Positions 39,745-48,426 of a DNA stretch of 64,000 nucleotides are shown here, piece by piece. Positions within the stretch are counted from its first letter, which is position 1. Every line of letters starts with the position of its first letter. Under the pieces are notes generated by a model, which saw only the letters and a list, made by a program, of their open reading frames with translations, did not search any database and was not told where the DNA came from. The stretch spans positions 480,001 through 544,000 of the forward strand of contig JAUVXV010000001.1 in NCBI GenBank assembly GCA_030603365.1. Direction: 5' to 3'. Both the position numbers and the translations under genes were made by a program. This DNA comes from Candidatus Heimdallarchaeota archaeon (GTDB lineage: Archaea > Asgardarchaeota > Heimdallarchaeia > Heimdallarchaeales > Heimdallarchaeaceae).

Positions 39745-40713
39745 CTAGAAACCCATTGTGTTTAGAATGTGCTTGATTATCTTAAATTTATAACCTACAT
39801 TAATAACATCATTCACATTTGTTGTCATTCCAACAAGTATCTTACCATCAGTGCTTTCTTCCACTATAATTTGGACTACTTCAGCATTCAATGCCTTAAT
39901 TTCATCTTCAGAATTTATCATTTCATAGATAACTCGTGGAAATTGTGTAATGGTTTCCAGTACATAAATGATCTTCCTTTCTTCTAGATTTCCAGCATAT
40001 AACTCTCCAATAGCACCATCTTTCTTAGCATAGATATAAGCTGCTGCAGATGGAGATTTACATCCTCTTATGGAAGAAAACAACAAAGAAGTTATAGCTC
40101 TTTTGTTTGCTTCATCGAGAATTTCCTGTGTCATTTCACTTGCATGAATTCGTGGTACAGATTCGAAAGGTCGGATTTTCTCGAATTCCTCTGCTTTTGA
40201 TTCAGCTGTTAATTCACTACGTTCTTCTTCATGGGGAATATCTAATGTGAGGGGTTCAACTTCCATTCTTTCAATTCCTAGACGGGAATAGATTCTATCA
40301 ATTTGATTTCTGACACGATCAGGTGATTGATCATATGAATAACCGCAGGTTTTTATGAGTAAATTTTCATTTCCGTGAGTTGTTAGATTTCTAATTATGT
40401 TTTGACTCAAAGTTGTTACATAGTTAAGTATAACAGGTCGAATTTCAGCAGCTATATTTTCTACTCTTGATACAAAAAGAAGTGTTAGATCAATGAAGGT
40501 AATATATGTAGCTCTGAATTTACCTCTGAAAATAGTAATCTCATTATATCTTCTTACCCATTGATAGAATTCTATCGGATGAATGAAATAACTGTGAATT
40601 TCAGTTTTTTCTACTTCACTTTTTGCATTTTCCAGTTCAAAAATGTTATTTCCCTTTAAATCATAGATTATAACAGCTACTAAAGGAGTGATGTTTGTCT
40701 TTGGAAAAGGCAT
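39745..40713 (-). CDS. Two-domain protein with C-terminal roadblock-like domain (paralog 1)
   Basis: C-terminal domain aligns with 40892-41473 and 42194-43270 (QFPRVI..SEDEIKALNA..IIVEE). Confidence 0.65.
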   Translation of the reverse strand: MPFPKTNITPLVAVIIYDLKGNNIFELENAKSEVEKTEIHSYFIHPIEFYQWVRRYNEITIFRGKFRATYITFIDLTLLFVSRVENIAAEIRPVILNYVTTLSQNIIRNLTTHGNENLLIKTCGYSYDQSPDRVRNQIDRIYSRLGIERMEVEPLTLDIPHEEERSELTAESKAEEFEKIRPFESVPRIHASEMTQEILDEANKRAITSLLFSSIRGCKSPSAAAYIYAKKDGAIGELYAGNLEERKIIYVLETITQFPRVIYEMINSEDEIKALNAEVVQIIVEESTDGKILVGMTTNVNDVINVGYKFKIIKHILNTMGF

Positions 40714-40891
40714 AAGACCTCAACTAGAATGTAATATGTGATTATTCGCTAATAAATATATCTCAACTGTCCTATCATAGTACGAAAATTTCTAGTTTCA
40801 TAAGAATCAAGAACAAATTACTATTTTTCCCCTTTAATAGTAAGGAAATATTTTTAGAGTTTTACGATATATTAAATTCTGAGGAAGATTA

Positions 40892-41473
40892 ATGAATACT
40901 AAAAAGACTTCAGATGATTCCCCATCTTCAAAAATATCTTCTCGTAAAAGAAAAGCCTCTAAGAAGGATATTTTTGTTGAGATGGAAGAAGTTGCATACG
41001 AGACTTTGAAAATTCCTAAAAAGAAATTAAAATCTGGACAATACCTCCGAGATTTTCTTACTCAGACATCATCAGTTAGTGAAGTTAAAGAAGCGATACG
41101 AGTTACAATTGATGCATTACTTGATAGCATAGCAAGTGATTTACAATCCTTGTCGGCAGCATCATTAGTACCACACCCAGAAAGTGAAGATATGAGGGTG
41201 ATCGTAAGAGGACCCCTTAGTAAAGATGTGGTAAAGAAAATACTTGTAATTTTTCAAAAATACCCACCAGTTATTAATGATTTACTAGGGTCTGATGAAG
41301 AAATCAAAGTTTTAGATACAGGTATTGGTTTTGTTGTTTTAGAAAATTGTCAAAAGGACAATTATCTGGTCGGAATCACTCAGCAACAAAAAGATGTTGA
41401 TGAACTATCAAGAAAATTAAGACATGTTCAGAATGTGGTCATAAAAAACACACTACTTCTAGAGGACATCTAG
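40892..41473 (+). CDS. Roadblock-like domain protein with basic disordered N-terminus (paralog 2)
   Basis: KYPPVI..SDEEIKVLDTG..VVLEN..YLVGIT followed by a C-terminal helix. Confidence 0.65.
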   Translation: MNTKKTSDDSPSSKISSRKRKASKKDIFVEMEEVAYETLKIPKKKLKSGQYLRDFLTQTSSVSEVKEAIRVTIDALLDSIASDLQSLSAASLVPHPESEDMRVIVRGPLSKDVVKKILVIFQKYPPVINDLLGSDEEIKVLDTGIGFVVLENCQKDNYLVGITQQQKDVDELSRKLRHVQNVVIKNTLLLEDI

Positions 41474-41490
41474 TTGAAGAAATAGGCAAA

Positions 41491-42156
41491 TCATAGATTG
41501 GTTCCACAATGTGGGCATTTTTGTATTTCTGCATTTATTTCCTTAAAACAATTCCAGCAAGCTATTTTGTCCTTTATTTCTTCTTTATAAACTTCTATTA
41601 AATCAATTATTTCTTGCGTAAAATCAGTAACTTCATCATATAATTTTTCATTTCTCCCCAGAGATATTCTTGTTGAAAGAAGGTATAGGAGTAAAACTGA
41701 GCCACCTATTGAAACTAGCACAACCCCCCCAATACGAAGGGCATCTTGGGCTTCTTGTGGAATACTTTCCTTAACTGCAAGCAGTATTATCAGTGGAACA
41801 ATAGAAACAGCTATAATTAGTAAAACTACCCATAAACTATATCTTAATCCAAAAATCTGTTTATTTGACCAATTATATATCCCTCCAAAATAACTTTTTC
41901 TTGGCCTGTAAACGTCAATTTCAAGAAGATTTTCACGTTCAGTGTCAGTGATTTCAACGTTAACCCTTCTTCTTCTAATTTTTGTAAAAAGCTTCAATTC
42001 CTTATCATTTATTTCCTCGATTGTTATTTCTCTTTTTTGTAGTTTTTTTTCTAAATATTTGAAAAGAGATAGTGTTTTCTTTACACTACTGCGAATTTCT
42101 CTTAAGAAAAATCTTCTCTTAATTTGGCTTTTGTCCCAAATTTTCATCGACCCCAC
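41491..42156 (-). CDS. 2-TM membrane protein with C-terminal Zn ribbon
   Basis: Two hydrophobic helices; CWNC..CPHCG. Confidence 0.75.
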   Translation of the reverse strand: MGSMKIWDKSQIKRRFFLREIRSSVKKTLSLFKYLEKKLQKREITIEEINDKELKLFTKIRRRRVNVEITDTERENLLEIDVYRPRKSYFGGIYNWSNKQIFGLRYSLWVVLLIIAVSIVPLIILLAVKESIPQEAQDALRIGGVVLVSIGGSVLLLYLLSTRISLGRNEKLYDEVTDFTQEIIDLIEVYKEEIKDKIACWNCFKEINAEIQKCPHCGTNL

Positions 42157-42193
42157 ATAACAGATACAATGTGAATTATAAAGGAATATTCGT

Positions 42194-43270
42194 TTAACTT
42201 AAGAAAGATGGTTTAAGAAACTCACCAATCATTGTTTTTACAAGTTTCATTCTTTTAGCAATTTGAGGAATTTCCTCTCTATTTTTTGTGATACTTACTA
42301 ACATTCCACCTTCAGTTTCTTCTAAAATGACTACACCGTCTCCTGCATCAAGAGTTTTTTCTTCTCCTTGAGCTTCAAGTGTTTGTTTAACAACTTCAGG
42401 ATATTTAGATAATATGCCTAAAACAAATTCTGCATGCTTTTCAGACATACCATAAGTTATTGTTTCAAGTAACCCTTTATCTCCAGTAAAAACAAAACAG
42501 ACTCCTGTTTTTGAGGACAGTCCTTTAACCACTGATGATATGACTCGCTCAATTGCACTCCTTTTTGTTTCCTCTAGAAGCTGTTGAGTTAATTCAACCT
42601 TCTTGTCATTTGCTATGAAAGTAGCATGAGAAATTTTTTTTCTTCCTAAATGTTCTAATAAATCTTCTACTTGACCTGAATCTGTAGTGCTTGATTGTTG
42701 AGTAGGTGTGTGTGATTGTGCTGTTGAAGGTGAGGGTGTTGTAGGTGAATAAGATTCTGTTTGTTGTACTGCTGGTTTTTCTTCTTCAACTTTAGTAGGA
42801 GCTATTGGTTCTGATTCGATAACTTGAGGTTTCTTTGCAGGAAAATAGTCATATTTTATTTGACTTGCTGCTCTTTCAGAAATTAGATTTCCCAATCGTT
42901 TTATTAAAGCAGTTTGTGATCTTGGTTCCATTTTTTCAATTGTGCCATAATCTTTAAGCTGTTCGTTTAAGTTATTTTTAATTATCTGAATTATGCTCAT
43001 TGCCATATTTTCATCAGTATCTGGTAAAAACATGCATGCTAAAACAATATTATAATATAAATGATAATCAACTCTAAAAACCTCATTTATCAAAGAAAGT
43101 GTCTGTGATTTTTTTAATTCCTCTCTAGTTTTAGTACTTGTGTCTATAACCTGAAAAACGGTTGAAAAAGCTGTTTTTGTGTTTATAACTTTGTCAAAAA
43201 CCATATCTTCCTCTAGCGTAAAAAGGCTAAATCCAACAAACTTATTCCATGCTAAATCGAAGTCGCTCAT
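42194..43270 (-). CDS. Two-domain protein, P/S/T linker, C-terminal roadblock-like domain (paralog 3)
   Basis: KYPEVV..QGEEKTLDAG..VILEE..MLVSIT followed by a C-terminal helix. Confidence 0.65.
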   Translation of the reverse strand: MSDFDLAWNKFVGFSLFTLEEDMVFDKVINTKTAFSTVFQVIDTSTKTREELKKSQTLSLINEVFRVDYHLYYNIVLACMFLPDTDENMAMSIIQIIKNNLNEQLKDYGTIEKMEPRSQTALIKRLGNLISERAASQIKYDYFPAKKPQVIESEPIAPTKVEEEKPAVQQTESYSPTTPSPSTAQSHTPTQQSSTTDSGQVEDLLEHLGRKKISHATFIANDKKVELTQQLLEETKRSAIERVISSVVKGLSSKTGVCFVFTGDKGLLETITYGMSEKHAEFVLGILSKYPEVVKQTLEAQGEEKTLDAGDGVVILEETEGGMLVSITKNREEIPQIAKRMKLVKTMIGEFLKPSFLS

Positions 43271-43395
43271 CTTAAGTTCCTCACAGCTTTGTGTGAGATT
43301 AATTATTAATCAATATTCAGTACTTGACCATCAAACTCTATAAATTGTCTAGTATATGAATTTATTGTGGTCAATTTTAATTTAATTCTTGAATT

Positions 43396-44556
43396 TTATT
43401 TCTTCTTCTTTTTTTCTTGACGTAAGCGTCTTTTCTCCCATTTTTTCCATTTTTTGACATTCTTTGAAGATTCATTCCCGAATACAACTGCAGAATAAGA
43501 TCTCCCTTCAGTTTCCCCTAACTCACGAACCTTAAAACCTTCTTGTTCTACTCTTTTCTTTGTTTCTGAAAGCATTTGTTCTATTATGCTTTGACGACGT
43601 TGAGTTGCATCTGCGTCTAATTCTTCTACTTTTTCTTCCGTAACCACTTCTGGTTGAGGGATAATTTCTTCTGCTACTATTTCTTGTTCAGGAGTTATTT
43701 CTTGTTCAGGAACTGCTTCTGGTTCAGAAATAATCTCATCTATTGCGGATTCGTGAATTATTTGATCAAGATCTACTTTTTCAACAATTGGTTCTCCTGC
43801 TATTTCTGATGTTACCTCTACAATATCCTGTTCAGGTTCTTCTGTTGTCGAAATTATAATTTCTTCTTTGGTAATAGGAACACTAGTAGTTTCCTCTTTA
43901 AATATCAGGTTGTGAATATCTATTGGAATATTTTCAGGCTGGATTAATATCTGTTCATTGATGACTGGTTCTTTAACAATGGGAGAGGATAAATCAACTG
44001 ATTCCAGACTTTTAATATCTTTTTCTGGTAGCTCTTTTATCGTTATTTCTTCAAAATCTGTTGATGTTTCAGGAGTTTCTAAAGCTTCATCAAAATGAGT
44101 TTCTACGGTACTTCTTTTACCTTCAGAGGGAAGAGGTATCTGTTCTTTTTCAATAATTTCTTGAATTTCTGTTTTATCACTAGCATCAATTTCCCCTATA
44201 TCTTCACCTGAAACAGCTTTTGCCAAACCAATTGTAACTTCTTGAAGCTCTTTATCCAGCTGAATTTGCTCATCTGTTGGTTGGATTTCTTTATCAACTT
44301 CAGGTTCTTCTAGAATCTCTTCTTTGATTTCTTCTTCAGGTTCTTCTAGAACCTCTTCTTTGATTTCTTCTTCAGGTGCTGTATCCTTTAATTGCATTTC
44401 AGGTTCGATGCTGTTTTCTAATGTGCTTTCATCAGTAATAACTACCTTTTCAGCATGAACTTGTTCTTTAGCTAGGTCATAGAGAAATTGAGCAAATCTA
44501 ACGATATTCTTATTATCCCAATCTAGCAACTCTTTTGAATCTTCTTCATTATTCAT
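43396..44556 (-). CDS. Highly acidic, largely disordered protein with basic C-terminus
   Basis: E/I/P-rich; internal repeat EEEIKEE(V/I)LEEP x2; ends KKWKKWEKRRLRQEKKKKK. Confidence 0.75.
   Translation of the reverse strand: MNNEEDSKELLDWDNKNIVRFAQFLYDLAKEQVHAEKVVITDESTLENSIEPEMQLKDTAPEEEIKEEVLEEPEEEIKEEILEEPEVDKEIQPTDEQIQLDKELQEVTIGLAKAVSGEDIGEIDASDKTEIQEIIEKEQIPLPSEGKRSTVETHFDEALETPETSTDFEEITIKELPEKDIKSLESVDLSSPIVKEPVINEQILIQPENIPIDIHNLIFKEETTSVPITKEEIIISTTEEPEQDIVEVTSEIAGEPIVEKVDLDQIIHESAIDEIISEPEAVPEQEITPEQEIVAEEIIPQPEVVTEEKVEELDADATQRRQSIIEQMLSETKKRVEQEGFKVRELGETEGRSYSAVVFGNESSKNVKKWKKWEKRRLRQEKKKKK
44298..44376. repeat. 36-bp tandem repeat x2 inside the acidic protein gene
   Basis: CTTCAGGTTCTTCTAGAA(T/C)CTCTTCTTTGATTTCTT twice, followed by CTTCAGG. 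Confidence 0.85.
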
Positions 44557-44768: not shown

Positions 44769-45815
44769 ATGAGTGATTCACTCAAACCGCTATTAATCCA
44801 ACTAGTAGGCTCCTTTTCATATTATCTTATTGATGAAGCTCGTAGAGAGATAGGGAAAGATGTCTTGGAAGTTCAAATTCAAGATATTGAGTATTATAAA
44901 ACTGGAGGACGGTTTGGTGATGTTTATGTTATAGATGTATTATACTCATCCAAATTCGGGAAACACATAACAAAATTAGCTATTAAATTCATGGAAAGTC
45001 CTACAGAAGTTATTACTGAAATAAAAAATTCCTCATTTCTAGAAAAGAAATTTTCTACTCGTTCTGTTGTAAAAATTCCAAGATATGTTTATGTCAATTT
45101 GAAATCACCAACCTTTATAGCTTATGAAGGAGTAACTGGAATTAATTATGAAGATGCGCTTGATGTCAGAGATAAAAGTTTCTGGGCAGGTTATGTATTA
45201 TCAATAATTCATGAAGGTAAACCTCGTTCTGTGATCACTGATATTTATGAAGAACTCTATAGACGTCTCGTTCTTTCAATATTTGGAGGAGAAAACGTAG
45301 AGCAAGAAATTATGGAAAAATCAAAGGTTCTCATAGAAATGATGTCTGTGTCACAAGGGGGAAGTGATGCTTTTGGCGATTTCCATCAAAGTAATCTCAT
45401 GGTAAGAACTTCTCCTCAAAGCGAAGTATTAGGCATTGCTCTTATAGATCCAACTTTTTGGATGCAAGGTTCTTTTGATCGTTTTGAAGATGTAGGTACT
45501 TTTTTTGGAAGACAAGCTTTCTTAGAATTTAGAGTGAATAAACAGCTTGATACCACAATTGATGACATTCAGAAATTTATTCAAGGTTATAATGTTCATC
45601 TCAGAGAAGTTAATTCTATTCCACTTGAAGACCTATATCCCAAAGGTTATCCACTAGATTTCTTCTTAGCAATATGGGCGTTGATGGATATTCTTGATAA
45701 AACTATGAACCAGAATATCCCCTTAAATCATGTAGATATACTTCTTCTTAAAGAACTGGCTTTTCTATTACTAACAGAACATCCAATTAGTAAAGAAATA
45801 AATAATTTTATATGA
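44769..45815 (+). CDS. APH/choline-kinase-fold phosphotransferase (paralog of 20063-21169)
   Basis: GGRFGDVY, LAIKF..E, IAYEGVTG, FGDFHQSN, LIDPTF, EDVGTFF. Confidence 0.8.
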   Translation: MSDSLKPLLIQLVGSFSYYLIDEARREIGKDVLEVQIQDIEYYKTGGRFGDVYVIDVLYSSKFGKHITKLAIKFMESPTEVITEIKNSSFLEKKFSTRSVVKIPRYVYVNLKSPTFIAYEGVTGINYEDALDVRDKSFWAGYVLSIIHEGKPRSVITDIYEELYRRLVLSIFGGENVEQEIMEKSKVLIEMMSVSQGGSDAFGDFHQSNLMVRTSPQSEVLGIALIDPTFWMQGSFDRFEDVGTFFGRQAFLEFRVNKQLDTTIDDIQKFIQGYNVHLREVNSIPLEDLYPKGYPLDFFLAIWALMDILDKTMNQNIPLNHVDILLLKELAFLLLTEHPISKEINNFI

Positions 45816-45863
45816 GCCCGATGCAAGAAATATTTTAAAGAAGGAAATACAAGGTTATTTGAG

Positions 45864-46706
45864 ATGATTAACTCTAATCAAGAGATTTTAGTCTCAGCTT
45901 ACGCATTAGCTAAGATACTAGCATTGGATTCTCTGGATCATTCAAAAGAATCAGCAGGAGTATTATTAGGATATGTAGATGAGAATGGAAAAACGTTAGT
46001 TATTACAGATTTTGATACAGGAAAACAGCAACAAACCTCAACTTATGTTGTACTTGATGATGAAGCGTTAGTACAAATTGTTACAGATTTGCAAAAGCGT
46101 GATAAACGAGAAACAATAGTTGGATGGGTTCATACTCACCCTTCATATGGTTGTTTCCTCTCTGGTACAGACAAGAGCACTCAAAGAGTATATCAGAATC
46201 TTTTTTCACAAGCAGTTGCTTTAGTAATTGATCCTTCAAAATATTACAAATCATCTGATCAAAAAGACTTGGAAATTAAATTCTTTAGGTTGATTAATGA
46301 TTTAGATTACAAAGTTATTCCATTTGGAATATTCTATGATGATGTGACTACTCATCTGGCTAATCTCGTCGAATTTGATATTAAGTGGGAATTACCTACA
46401 TTATCGGCAGAAGAAGTAAAAATACTCCATCAGAAAATACATTCAATAAGCACTTCTTCAATGCTTGAGGGAGATAAACAATTATTGCATGGATTTGTTG
46501 ATGTTTTAAGTACGTCTTCAGAAGATTTTGTTTCAACAGATGAAGGTAAAGAAACATTAGAATCTATAGATATGAAACTAAATCATATCATAAGAGATGT
46601 AAACTATATCTATGGAGAAGAAACATCTAATCTTTATGCCATATTAAATGTCATTGCTGTTATTGTAATTGCAATTTCATGGTTACTAGCAGCTTTCATT
46701 GCTTAA
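45864..46706 (+). CDS. JAMM/MPN+ isopeptidase (Rpn11/AMSH-like) with C-terminal TM anchor
   Basis: ESAGVLLG, VGWVHTHPSYGCFLSGTD (E..HxH..S..D), ALVIDP; C-terminal AILNVIAVIVIAISWLLAAFIA. Confidence 0.88.
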   Translation: MINSNQEILVSAYALAKILALDSLDHSKESAGVLLGYVDENGKTLVITDFDTGKQQQTSTYVVLDDEALVQIVTDLQKRDKRETIVGWVHTHPSYGCFLSGTDKSTQRVYQNLFSQAVALVIDPSKYYKSSDQKDLEIKFFRLINDLDYKVIPFGIFYDDVTTHLANLVEFDIKWELPTLSAEEVKILHQKIHSISTSSMLEGDKQLLHGFVDVLSTSSEDFVSTDEGKETLESIDMKLNHIIRDVNYIYGEETSNLYAILNVIAVIVIAISWLLAAFIA

Positions 46707-46771: not shown

Positions 46772-47554
46772 ATGCCTCAAATACAAATTATACCAGTACC
46801 TTCAGTTAAAATAATTGAAGTAAAGGATGATTTACTTTCTATCTTATTTGATTCTCTAAGTGAAAACAAAATACATTTAGAAAATGATGATATTTTAGTT
46901 ATTGCCAGTAAAGTAGTGGCAGTTGCAGAAGATAATATAGTCCATTATTCAACCGTAACTCCTTCAATTGAAGCCATAGAATTAGCCAAAGAAGCGCACA
47001 TGGATCCAGAATTTGCACAAGTTATTCTTGATGAATCTAATGGTAAATATACAGGAGCTGTTCCGGGTGCTATTACTACTTTGAATGAATATGGTCTTCT
47101 TGCAAATGCAGGAGCTGATCAATCCAATGCTAGAGATAAGCAGATTATTCTTTTACCCAAGAATAGTAAGAAATCTGCAGAACAAATACACAAACAGATA
47201 CTAGAAAAAATCAACTCCTATGTTGGCATTATAATTGCAGATTCTCGAACAACTCCATTAAGACTAGGCACAGTTGGTTGTGCATTAGCAACTTTTGGAT
47301 TTGAATCTCTCCTTGATGAAAGAGGCAATAATGATTTATTTGGAAGAGAAATGCATATTACAGTACGTGCAATAGCTGATCAATTGGCAACAGCTGCAGA
47401 GATTGTAATGGGAGAAACCGATGAAAGAACTCCTTTTGCTATTATCAGAGGATACCCAATCAAAAGAATAATAGAAAATGAAGAGATTAATCTTAATACA
47501 CAAATTTCTGCAGAAGAATGTATGTTCATTGGTCCAATGTTAAAGAAGAAGTGA
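46772..47554 (+). CDS. cofE: CofE-family gamma-glutamyl ligase
   Basis: DILVIASKVVA.AE, ANAGADQSN, GIIIADS, DLFGREM..T..AIADQLA..A..VMGE. Confidence 0.88.
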   Translation: MPQIQIIPVPSVKIIEVKDDLLSILFDSLSENKIHLENDDILVIASKVVAVAEDNIVHYSTVTPSIEAIELAKEAHMDPEFAQVILDESNGKYTGAVPGAITTLNEYGLLANAGADQSNARDKQIILLPKNSKKSAEQIHKQILEKINSYVGIIIADSRTTPLRLGTVGCALATFGFESLLDERGNNDLFGREMHITVRAIADQLATAAEIVMGETDERTPFAIIRGYPIKRIIENEEINLNTQISAEECMFIGPMLKKK

Positions 47555-48426
47555 TGAGGGGATTAAGTGTGATCAGAGGATATTTAGGTTCTTTAGAAGT
47601 TGGAGATGAATTACCAGTAAGGATTGTTGGAGTTGTAAATCTATCACCTGCTTCATTTTTCCAAGGTTCAATTGCAGCTTCAAAATTAGAACTTGAGAAA
47701 AAAGTACTAGCAATGATAGATGAAGGCGTAAATTGTATAGATATAGGAGCCCAATCAACTAGACCGATTCAAATTTATGGAGGCAAAGGTCGAGTTGATC
47801 AAGAAATGGAATTGGAACTGGTAAAAACTGCTTTAGAAATTAGCATGGATATATTAAGTAGTTATGATGAAATTGAAATTTCAGTTGATACTCAAAGAAA
47901 AAACGTTGCTGAATATGCATTGAATAAAGGAATCAAAATAATAAATGATATCTCAGGTTTTAAGAAAGAAATAGAGATGGCAAAGATAATCGCTAATTTT
48001 AGCGCATCTGCTGTAGTTATGGCTGCAAGGAAAGAACCAGGGGATATTTTTACTCTTGAGGATATATCTCTAGAATTAGAAAAAAGTGTAGAAATTGGGT
48101 TAAAGTATGGTATTCAAGAAAATAGAATTATTGTTGACCCAGGTATTGGAAGCTGGGAAGCTAGAGATTATAGACATGATTATACTATCATTAAGAATCT
48201 CGAGAAATTTAGGGATCTCAAAAAACCAATTTATATCGGTATAAGCAGGAAAACATCAATCGGTAAAGCTTTAAATGATGCACCAGCAGATCAAAGATTG
48301 TTCGGTTCGATTGGTGCAACAATAATCTCTTTAGTTAAAGGAGTTCATATTGTTCGAACCCACGATGTTAAACCAACTTTAGATGCCATTCGTGTAGGAG
48401 AAGTAATTTTGAATTATGATGAATAA
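47554..48426 (+). CDS. folP: Dihydropteroate synthase; starts by TGATG overlap with cofE
   Basis: GVVNLSPASF, IDIGAQSTRP, ISVDT, INDISG, VDPGIG, GISRKT, IVRTHDV. Confidence 0.92.
   Translation: MRGLSVIRGYLGSLEVGDELPVRIVGVVNLSPASFFQGSIAASKLELEKKVLAMIDEGVNCIDIGAQSTRPIQIYGGKGRVDQEMELELVKTALEISMDILSSYDEIEISVDTQRKNVAEYALNKGIKIINDISGFKKEIEMAKIIANFSASAVVMAARKEPGDIFTLEDISLELEKSVEIGLKYGIQENRIIVDPGIGSWEARDYRHDYTIIKNLEKFRDLKKPIYIGISRKTSIGKALNDAPADQRLFGSIGATIISLVKGVHIVRTHDVKPTLDAIRVGEVILNYDE

Follow-up and report, generated by a model that had tools for sequence, protein, structure and literature searches.

The JAMM-family proteases Rpn11, CSN5 and AMSH are soluble, and the Asgard archaea, the closest known archaeal relatives of eukaryotes, carry ubiquitin machinery from which that of eukaryotes is considered to derive. 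The closest characterized relative of the protein described here is CsRpn11 of Candidatus Caldiarchaeum subterraneum (PDB 6FJU, 6FJV, 6FNN and 6FNO), which is active without a proteasome lid. It processes the ubiquitin precursor and cleaves ubiquitin conjugates, but not small archaeal modifier proteins (SAMPs) (PMC6043591, PMC5654768), and its 202-residue polypeptide was purified full-length as a soluble monomer (PMC6043591). In the current study, we analyzed a window of 64,000 nucleotides from the genome of Candidatus Heimdallarchaeota archaeon (GenBank assembly GCA_030603365.1, contig JAUVXV010000001.1, positions 480,001 to 544,000, forward strand) and examined one gene in it, whose 280-residue product (P0001) carries an MPN+ domain of the CsRpn11 type followed by a hydrophobic helix at the extreme C terminus. 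We judge it fairly probable that P0001 is a tail-anchored, Rpn11-like deubiquitinase and ubiquitin-precursor peptidase, predicted to lie at the cytoplasmic face of the membrane, and in this archaeon both the maturation and the removal of ubiquitin probably take place on the inner side of the cell membrane. What is new here is the predicted membrane anchor on an otherwise known type of JAMM/MPN+ enzyme.

Sequence and fold place P0001 in the JAMM/MPN+ family and, within it, in the CsRpn11-like group. The open reading frame, which runs from an ATG to a TAA codon, encodes a protein that matches PF01398 (JAB) over residues 4 to 113 (E value, 8.1e-15; score, 55.1 bits; family cut-off, 22.5 bits) and PF14464 (3.7e-08). 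A phmmer search of the PDB ranked CsRpn11 (6fjv/6fju, 1.7e-25) above Rpn11/PSMD14 (~2e-15), CSN5 (~1e-14) and AMSH (~1e-9). An AlphaFold2 model computed with 21 orthologues (mean predicted local distance difference test [pLDDT] score, 71.7) has an MPN fold at residues 8 to 168, and its top Foldseek matches were again CsRpn11, Rpn11 and CSN5, with target TM scores (TMt) of 0.77 to 0.83 on the core (3.6e-15 and 0.77 for 6fju). P0001 and CsRpn11 have in common an E...HxH-x7-S-x2-D site, an Ins-1 segment of equal length, the lack of a long Ins-2 and the presence of helices past the MPN core. The initial annotation of this locus described a complete catalytic motif in a eukaryote-like context, and this description was borne out: E29, H90, H92, S100 and D103 are all present (residues 87 to 103 read GWVHTHPSYGCFLSGTD) and are unchanged in the alignment of 21 orthologues. 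In the Ins-1-like loop, T52, G53, Q55, Q57 and T58 are invariant in the same alignment, and pLDDT falls below 50 at residues 58 to 63. The latter fits a loop that is ordered by its ligand, as the Ins-1 loop of CsRpn11 is described as becoming ordered upon ubiquitin binding (PMC6043591). P0001 is most likely an intact Rpn11-like MPN+ protease, predicted to act as a zinc-dependent isopeptidase.

P0001 differs from CsRpn11 in its length, in its longer helical linker and in its predicted terminal transmembrane helix. The linker comprises about 85 residues of helices between the MPN+ domain and the terminal hydrophobic helix; it sits where CsRpn11 has its C-terminal helices H4 and H5 (PMC6043591), and the profile match extends through this region in other Heimdallarchaeia families. 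Residues 256 to 280 (NLYAILNVIAVIVIAISWLLAAFIA) include no charged residue, and the protein terminates at residue 280. The best 19-residue Kyte-Doolittle window (residues 261 to 279) scores 2.70, against the classical threshold of 1.6 for a transmembrane segment, and residues 253 to 280 form the sole region with windows above that threshold, the rest of the protein coming nowhere near it. P0001 has, in other words, one hydrophobic helix within its last ~30 residues and none elsewhere, which is the makeup of a tail-anchored protein. AlphaFold2 modeled a single long helix from residue 229 to residue 279, with pLDDT values of 80 to 86 over the tail. The hydrophobic tail is present in all 21 aligned orthologues, with Y258, N262 and W273 invariant within the family; in orthologues down to ~30% identity, the tail stays hydrophobic despite a completely changed sequence, which argues that its hydrophobicity is not a matter of chance. 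The helical stalk and terminal helix without a luminal tail that had been noted from the sequence thus stand, and of the inferences drawn from them a membrane-resident deubiquitinase, as predicted from the MPN+ domain and the terminal hydrophobic helix together, is the best supported.

This architecture is not confined to one genome. A word-indexed search returned 49 relatives besides P0001, most of them full-length proteins of ~280 residues with 50 to 88% identity, and every named one was labelled Heimdallarchaeota, Heimdallarchaeaceae or Asgard group. In a six-frame search of 301 Asgard genomes, each of the 28 genomes sampled from the family of this archaeon had a full-length orthologue. When 1.84 billion representatives were searched exhaustively with a profile, 18 clusters fell below 1e-30; many of the proteins of 210 to 300 residues that this search recovered have their best hydrophobic window a few residues from the C terminus, and those with names include proteins from Odinarchaeum yellowstonii LCB4 and from a Baldrarchaeia metagenome-assembled genome. 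We also read whole open reading frames for the best MPN matches from at least one genome of each of 22 Asgard families. A single hydrophobic helix at the extreme C terminus was found in MPN+ genes of 15 of these families (f1, f2, f3, f4, f6, f8 [Odinarchaeum], f9, f12, f13, f17, f19, f23, f25, f29 and f30), while the MPN genes examined from the remainder (f5, f7, f14, f15, f18, f20 and f27) lack it, the unanchored forms being soluble proteins of ~300 residues, short proteins of ~150 residues or proteins with an N-terminal extension. It is the hydrophobicity of the tail, and not its sequence, that is conserved between Asgard families. The initial annotation had called for a search for an MPN+ domain joined to a transmembrane segment in Asgard archaea and had implied that the combination is rare; the architecture is indeed there, and in many Asgard families it is the enzyme's common form. 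One relative from family f12 (L019:3866-4465, minus strand), placed in a group that is otherwise anchored, has no hydrophobic tail and ends in a strongly basic stretch (...KKLYRRKDTIFKERKRRKIIT), which may be a replacement that binds membranes peripherally or binds nucleic acid.

In an unrooted tree computed by maximum likelihood from 146 MPN domains (LG+C20 with a quick search), P0001 falls in a clade of 27 rows, 23 of them tail anchored, which is nested in a clade of 49 rows with a Shimodaira-Hasegawa-like approximate likelihood ratio test (SH-aLRT) value of 93. The larger clade includes the Odinarchaeum protein, and 41 of its rows are tail anchored; the unanchored rows in the two clades are mostly truncated fragments, together with a few forms of ~295 residues with a soluble C terminus. 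Rows of the eukaryotic Rpn11 and CSN5 kind group apart in a clade of their own (SH-aLRT, 99), with P0001 in an archaeal one. No hydrophobic segment was found in 42 of the 48 eukaryote-like rows, which fits the general view of Rpn11 and CSN5 as soluble proteins; four others have internal segments, and two are flagged as tail anchored, which we take for poor gene models. Given this separate eukaryotic clade, and given that searches of the genome with both Pfam models found no MPN- (Rpn8-like) partner, P0001 is not an orthologue of the proteasome-lid Rpn11. The anchored label is strongly clustered on the tree, requiring at least 12 changes against a mean of 41.6 after shuffling. Holding all 48 archaeal tail-anchored rows as a strict single clade was rejected by the approximately unbiased (AU) test (p-AU, 0.0006). 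That test was poorly posed, and its outcome was to be expected, because truncated fragments and a few soluble derivatives are nested between anchored rows; it shows that the anchored label needs several changes on the tree, not that the architecture had many independent origins. Because the tree is unrooted, gain and loss of the anchor are indistinguishable on it. A separate, well-supported clade of MPN+ proteins of 430 to 760 residues (P0113, P0116, P0127, P0156, P0165 and P0167) has a hydrophobic helix in midprotein, with a large C-terminal part predicted to lie outside the cell; this would be a second, different means of placing an MPN domain at the membrane.

The genome encodes exactly two MPN genes by both Pfam models, each with its motif intact, and two ubiquitin-like systems. 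An operon on contig 17 (L002:218-2596 and L027:114-1836) encodes an E1 (416 residues), a ubiquitin-like protein (120 residues), an E2 (176 residues), an MPN+ protein (240 residues) and a RING protein (360 residues). Its MPN+ protein is a soluble form with an N-terminal extension, and its ubiquitin-like protein has an acidic N-terminal extension and ends in ...STAGK. Over its N-terminal 200 residues, the RING protein is very hydrophobic and reads as several membrane helices, and its C terminus has a RING-like finger (Pfam only 0.006 to 0.007), making it a candidate membrane-embedded ubiquitin ligase; given this hydrophobic part, ubiquitin ligation at the membrane is plausible. The other system lies on contig 1, ~195 kb from the P0001 gene, and consists of an E1, an E2/UEV-like gene and a 78-residue ubiquitin (Pfam, 3.9e-14) with the C terminus ...RTKGGS; the 3.2 kb inspected at this cluster showed no MPN gene. 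Since the remaining MPN gene of the genome sits in the contig 17 operon, the anchored enzyme is the obvious candidate for the contig 1 system, and we infer that it serves this system.

Other Asgard genomes strengthen this view. The anchored gene of Odinarchaeum is the sole JAB match there to the Pfam family, and in one genome each of f13, f17 and f19, the anchored form is the sole match to P0001 at an E value of 1e-5 or lower. All four genomes have a ubiquitin-E2 cluster at another location, with an E1-like gene beside it in Odinarchaeum and f17. Ubiquitin extends past its Gly-Gly motif in the present genome (GGS), in Odinarchaeum (GGSVKY) and in f23 (GGPY), and those of Odinarchaeum and f23 therefore need trimming. 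Trimming of the CsUb precursor by CsRpn11 has been shown experimentally (PMC5654768, PMC6043591). For P0001, we consider precursor trimming as likely a job as action on membrane cargo. Among the 301 Asgard genomes, there were 207 MPN hits and 209 E2 hits, the two being present or missing together family by family. Little or no MPN was found in f10, f11, f16, f21, f24, f26 and f28, where E2 is also missing except in one of seven genomes of f24; in f11, for example, an MPN match was found in 1 of 76 genomes and an E2 in none of the 76. The whole ubiquitin module seems to be present or absent as a unit across Asgard families.

The way in which such an enzyme would work can be outlined. The MPN+ domain and the ~85-residue helical linker would remain cytoplasmic, while the last 25 residues would enter the cell membrane posttranslationally, the likely route being a Get3/ArsA homologue acting together with an EMC3/YidC-like insertase. 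Among the genes of this archaeon are one for an ArsA/Get3-family ATPase (2.8e-79) and one for an EMC3/TMCO1-family protein (7e-22), and both families have been implicated in tail-anchor insertion in eukaryotes and some archaea. Held a few nanometers from the membrane, the enzyme would bind the C-terminal tail of ubiquitin by its Ins-1 loop, as CsRpn11 does, and would cleave after Gly-Gly, thereby maturing the ubiquitin precursor (...KGGS) and stripping ubiquitin from conjugates made at or near the membrane.

Several observations weigh against this view. The model of P0001 is only moderately confident at its mean pLDDT, and the linker between its helices is poorly defined; the putative transmembrane assignment of residues 256 to 280 derives from hydropathy and conservation only; and the cytoplasmic flank of the tail helix is acidic (GEETSN) and not basic. 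Several Asgard families, including the largest one sampled, have only soluble MPN forms among the genes examined, and the anchor must therefore be dispensable for a working ubiquitin system. In addition, the phyletic link ties E2 genes to MPN genes of whatever type, and since related genomes are not independent samples, the co-occurrence is a pattern and not a statistic. The P0001 gene lies outside any ubiquitin operon here and in every relative examined. Finally, ArsA-family ATPases were found in all 14 control genomes, so that the presence of one is weak evidence for the route of insertion.

Other explanations have to be weighed against the same data. An anchored and active P0001 could work on a different modifier, be it the 120-residue ubiquitin-like protein of contig 17 or a protein of the SAMP/MoaD/ThiS/Urm1 type, or on a peptide bond that involves no ubiquitin-like protein. 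The genome does hold that second ubiquitin-like protein with an E1, E2 and E3 of its own, the P0001 gene adjoins no ubiquitin gene, and the NCBIfam likeness of P0001 to desampylases and Cap3-type isopeptidases, weak as it is, shows the breadth of JAMM substrates. However, these NCBIfam matches, at 20 to 24 bits, lie far under their cut-offs (127 to 320 bits), and the sequence and fold of P0001 are closest to those of CsRpn11, which cuts ubiquitin and not SAMPs. Moreover, the second ubiquitin-like protein has an MPN gene in its own operon, and where the anchored form is the only MPN found, it is the canonical ubiquitin-E2 cluster that is present. We regard a different substrate as unlikely. The archaeal desampylases of the JAMM1/HvJAMM1 type resemble P0001 in being stand-alone MPN+ enzymes that cut both precursors and conjugates of ubiquitin-like proteins; they differ in being small, soluble and SAMP directed, and P0001 scores 20.3 bits against the desampylase model, whose cut-off is 130. 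A rather different objection is that the terminal helix is a buried protein contact, like those that the C-terminal helices of Rpn11 make in the helical bundle of the proteasome lid, and that the enzyme is a subunit of a soluble complex. The position of the helix does match that of the C-terminal helices of CsRpn11 and Rpn11, and the invariant Y258, N262 and W273 suggest specific helix packing. PSMD14-like eukaryotic sequences recovered in the exhaustive search also end in a fairly hydrophobic helix; the latter, however, peaks at a Kyte-Doolittle value of 1.57 and contains Asp and Lys, whereas the 25 consecutive uncharged residues of P0001 are well over both this value and the threshold. Hydrophobicity that is conserved between families without conservation of sequence is what one would expect of a lipid-facing anchor, and the lack of an MPN- partner, with both MPN genes of the genome motif intact, also speaks against a lid-like complex. 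A buried helix seems to us highly improbable.

The neighbor of the P0001 gene raises another possibility, namely that the protease and a kinase of the aminoglycoside phosphotransferase (APH) fold together make up a two-gene module, in which, for instance, phosphorylation of a lipid head group, a metabolite or a protein would regulate the protease or tag its substrate, and in which taking off ubiquitin would be secondary. The kinase gene (P0213) lies directly upstream on the same strand, separated by a 48-nucleotide spacer, and this adjacency is kept in the family down to Heimdallarchaeum aukensis, where the protease is 50% identical; in a second family, a kinase homologue lies 2 to 3 kb from the anchored MPN gene (L006 and L007). 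P0213 belongs to no Pfam or NCBIfam family, and a PDB sequence search with it gave nothing real. Its orthologues keep the glycine-rich loop (G47 and G50), K73, E92, D204, N209 and D227, and the fold matches to its model (pLDDT, 88.4) include methylthioribose kinase, aminoglycoside and macrolide phosphotransferases and choline/ethanolamine kinases, with E values of ~1e-8 to 1e-7 (2.5e-8 for methylthioribose kinase and APH) and TM scores of ~0.5. P0213 is therefore predicted to have a small-molecule kinase fold with all catalytic residues present. On the other hand, of the five Heimdallarchaeia families examined whose MPN protein is anchored, just two showed the link, and the remaining loci examined, whether from Heimdallarchaeia or from other Asgard archaea, had no homologue of the kinase close to the MPN gene; four further Asgard families have another conserved pair of genes beside the protease. 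A TATA-like element in the 48-nucleotide spacer also makes separate transcription possible. A complex prediction for protease residues 1 to 252 with P0213 scored 0.00, which is evidence neither way. The kinase is thus a linked gene that is not established as a partner of the protease, and we consider a joint module very unlikely.

If P0001 is, as we favor, a membrane-bound deubiquitinase, its relation to the eukaryotic enzymes is of some interest. Like P0001, Rpn11/PSMD14 and CSN5 combine the MPN fold and the catalytic motif, in a very similar context, with C-terminal helices after the MPN domain; unlike it, they are soluble subunits of PCI complexes, are paired with an MPN- protein that is inactive and owe their activation to the complex. 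[quoted passage not shown] JAB is the sole domain that Pfam finds in P0001, no MIT or other ESCRT-binding domain being among the matches, and there is no ESCRT gene among its neighbors here or in the relatives examined. P0001 is not an AMSH-type ESCRT enzyme, and the suggestion, also made in the initial annotation, of a function resembling that of ESCRT or of endoplasmic reticulum-associated degradation found no support. The principle of a deubiquitinase held by a single membrane helix with its catalytic domain in the cytosol is familiar from the eukaryotic enzymes USP19 (tail anchored, endoplasmic reticulum) and USP30 (membrane anchored, mitochondria). These are cysteine proteases of the USP family, however, and are unrelated to JAMM enzymes in fold and mechanism.

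A full-text literature search, which did not cover most subscription journals, turned up no account of an archaeal MPN+ enzyme with a membrane anchor. The CsRpn11 papers (PMC6043591, PMC5654768) do not mention membranes, and in two papers on the Asgard ubiquitin-ESCRT system (PMC9192718, PMC11188069), the deubiquitinase appears only as a search term or abbreviation; all four treat the archaeal Rpn11-like enzyme as a soluble component of an operon. The JAMM cluster map in PMC6043591 was, as described there, trimmed to the catalytic core with all else removed, and because of this trimming a terminal anchor would have been invisible in this single large survey of JAMM proteins. The gene for CsRpn11 lies in an operon with those for ubiquitin, E1, E2 and E3, whereas the P0001 gene lies away from ubiquitin genes.

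If the usual Asgard form is membrane bound, then the maturation and removal of ubiquitin would be tied to the membrane surface, and this would bear on how ubiquitin joined ESCRT sorting and membrane-protein quality control. P0001 is a concrete and easily expressed candidate for studying tail-anchor insertion and ubiquitin signaling in an archaeon, and its genome offers a contrast within one cell, with an anchored and a soluble MPN+ enzyme, two ubiquitin-like systems and an apparently membrane-embedded RING E3. A more speculative idea is that the tail-anchored form is the ancestral Asgard deubiquitinase and that the eukaryotic ubiquitin system goes back to an archaeal one that operated at the membrane, where it matured ubiquitin and erased ubiquitin marks from membrane proteins; the soluble eukaryotic Rpn11 and CSN5 would descend from such a form that lost its anchor, their C-terminal helices being reused in the PCI helical bundle. 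We think this scenario distinctly unlikely.

Table 1. Features of the P0001 locus (positions within the 64,000-nucleotide window)
Feature	Position	Strand	Basis
Whole gene, predicted tail-anchored MPN+/JAMM protease P0001, 280 aa	45864..46706, stop codon included	+	Open reading frame list and translation
MPN+ catalytic domain, residues ~4-168	45873..46367	+	Pfam JAB, phmmer versus PDB, Foldseek
Codon of catalytic Glu29 (KESAG)	45948..45950	+	Invariant in alignment; lines up with the region of the catalytic Glu in CsRpn11 and Rpn11
Ins-1-like loop, residues ~49-63, DFDTGKQQQTSTYVV	46008..46052	+	Gapless alignment to the CsRpn11 Ins-1 segment
JAMM zinc motif H90-T-H92-x7-S100-x2-D103	46131..46172	+	Direct sequence reading; four residues invariant in alignment
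Helical linker ("stalk"), residues ~182-255	46407..46628	+	AlphaFold2 helices 182-194, 202-217, 229 onward
Predicted C-terminal transmembrane anchor, residues 256-280, nothing after	46629..46703	+	Kyte-Doolittle, absence of charge, conservation
Predicted APH/choline-kinase-fold kinase P0213, 348 aa, upstream neighbor	44769..45815	+	Synteny, invariant kinase motifs, fold match
TATA-like A/T-rich element TATTTTAAAG	45831..45840	+	In the 48-nucleotide spacer, ~28 nucleotides before the ATG; sequence reading
Weak hairpin and run of seven T, 3' of the stop codon	46707..46748	+	Fold -7.4 kcal/mol, z -1.5; T run from the sequence

As regards the expression of the P0001 gene, the TATA-like element upstream (Table 1) is possibly the gene's own promoter, in which case the mRNA would be nearly leaderless. 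The hairpin that follows the stop codon does not differ significantly from shuffled sequence and was rejected as a terminator, although the hairpin and T run together may, weakly, mark a possible transcript end. Parts of the window occur in DNA runs from cold seeps and sediments, and there was no RNA run among those listed.

Directly downstream of the protease gene, on the same strand (46772-48426), a CofE-type gene (F420-0:gamma-glutamyl ligase family) overlaps the start of a FolP-like pterin-binding gene by 37 nucleotides; this pair is kept in near relatives and is replaced in H. aukensis. Upstream of the kinase gene, the region 39745-44556 encodes three paralogous unannotated proteins with a common C-terminal domain of ~120 residues (25 to 30% mutual identity), and the gene for an acidic protein of 386 residues is located amid theirs. 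The possibility that these roadblock/longin-like genes form one system with the protease was considered and rejected: they are syntenic within the family only and are missing from the loci of the second family, where the kinase remains nearby. A search of the ESM Atlas gave no usable match for the C-terminal 116 residues or for the 256-residue Odinarchaeum neighbor described below.

In four Asgard families outside the Heimdallarchaeia, the anchored MPN gene lies beside, or within ~3 kb of, a conserved pair of genes encoding proteins of ~410 and ~256 residues (L017:3758-6450 in Odinarchaeum, L025:3782-6570, L024:3737-7911 and L022:20-4642). Pfam and NCBIfam hold no family for the pair from Odinarchaeum and f23, and profiles of the two proteins had no match in the genome that encodes P0001, which is 89% complete. 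Both members of the pair are soluble, the ~410-residue protein has an invariant ...P-x-DFLERD... motif, and in Odinarchaeum the MPN gene and the pair are contiguous on one strand.

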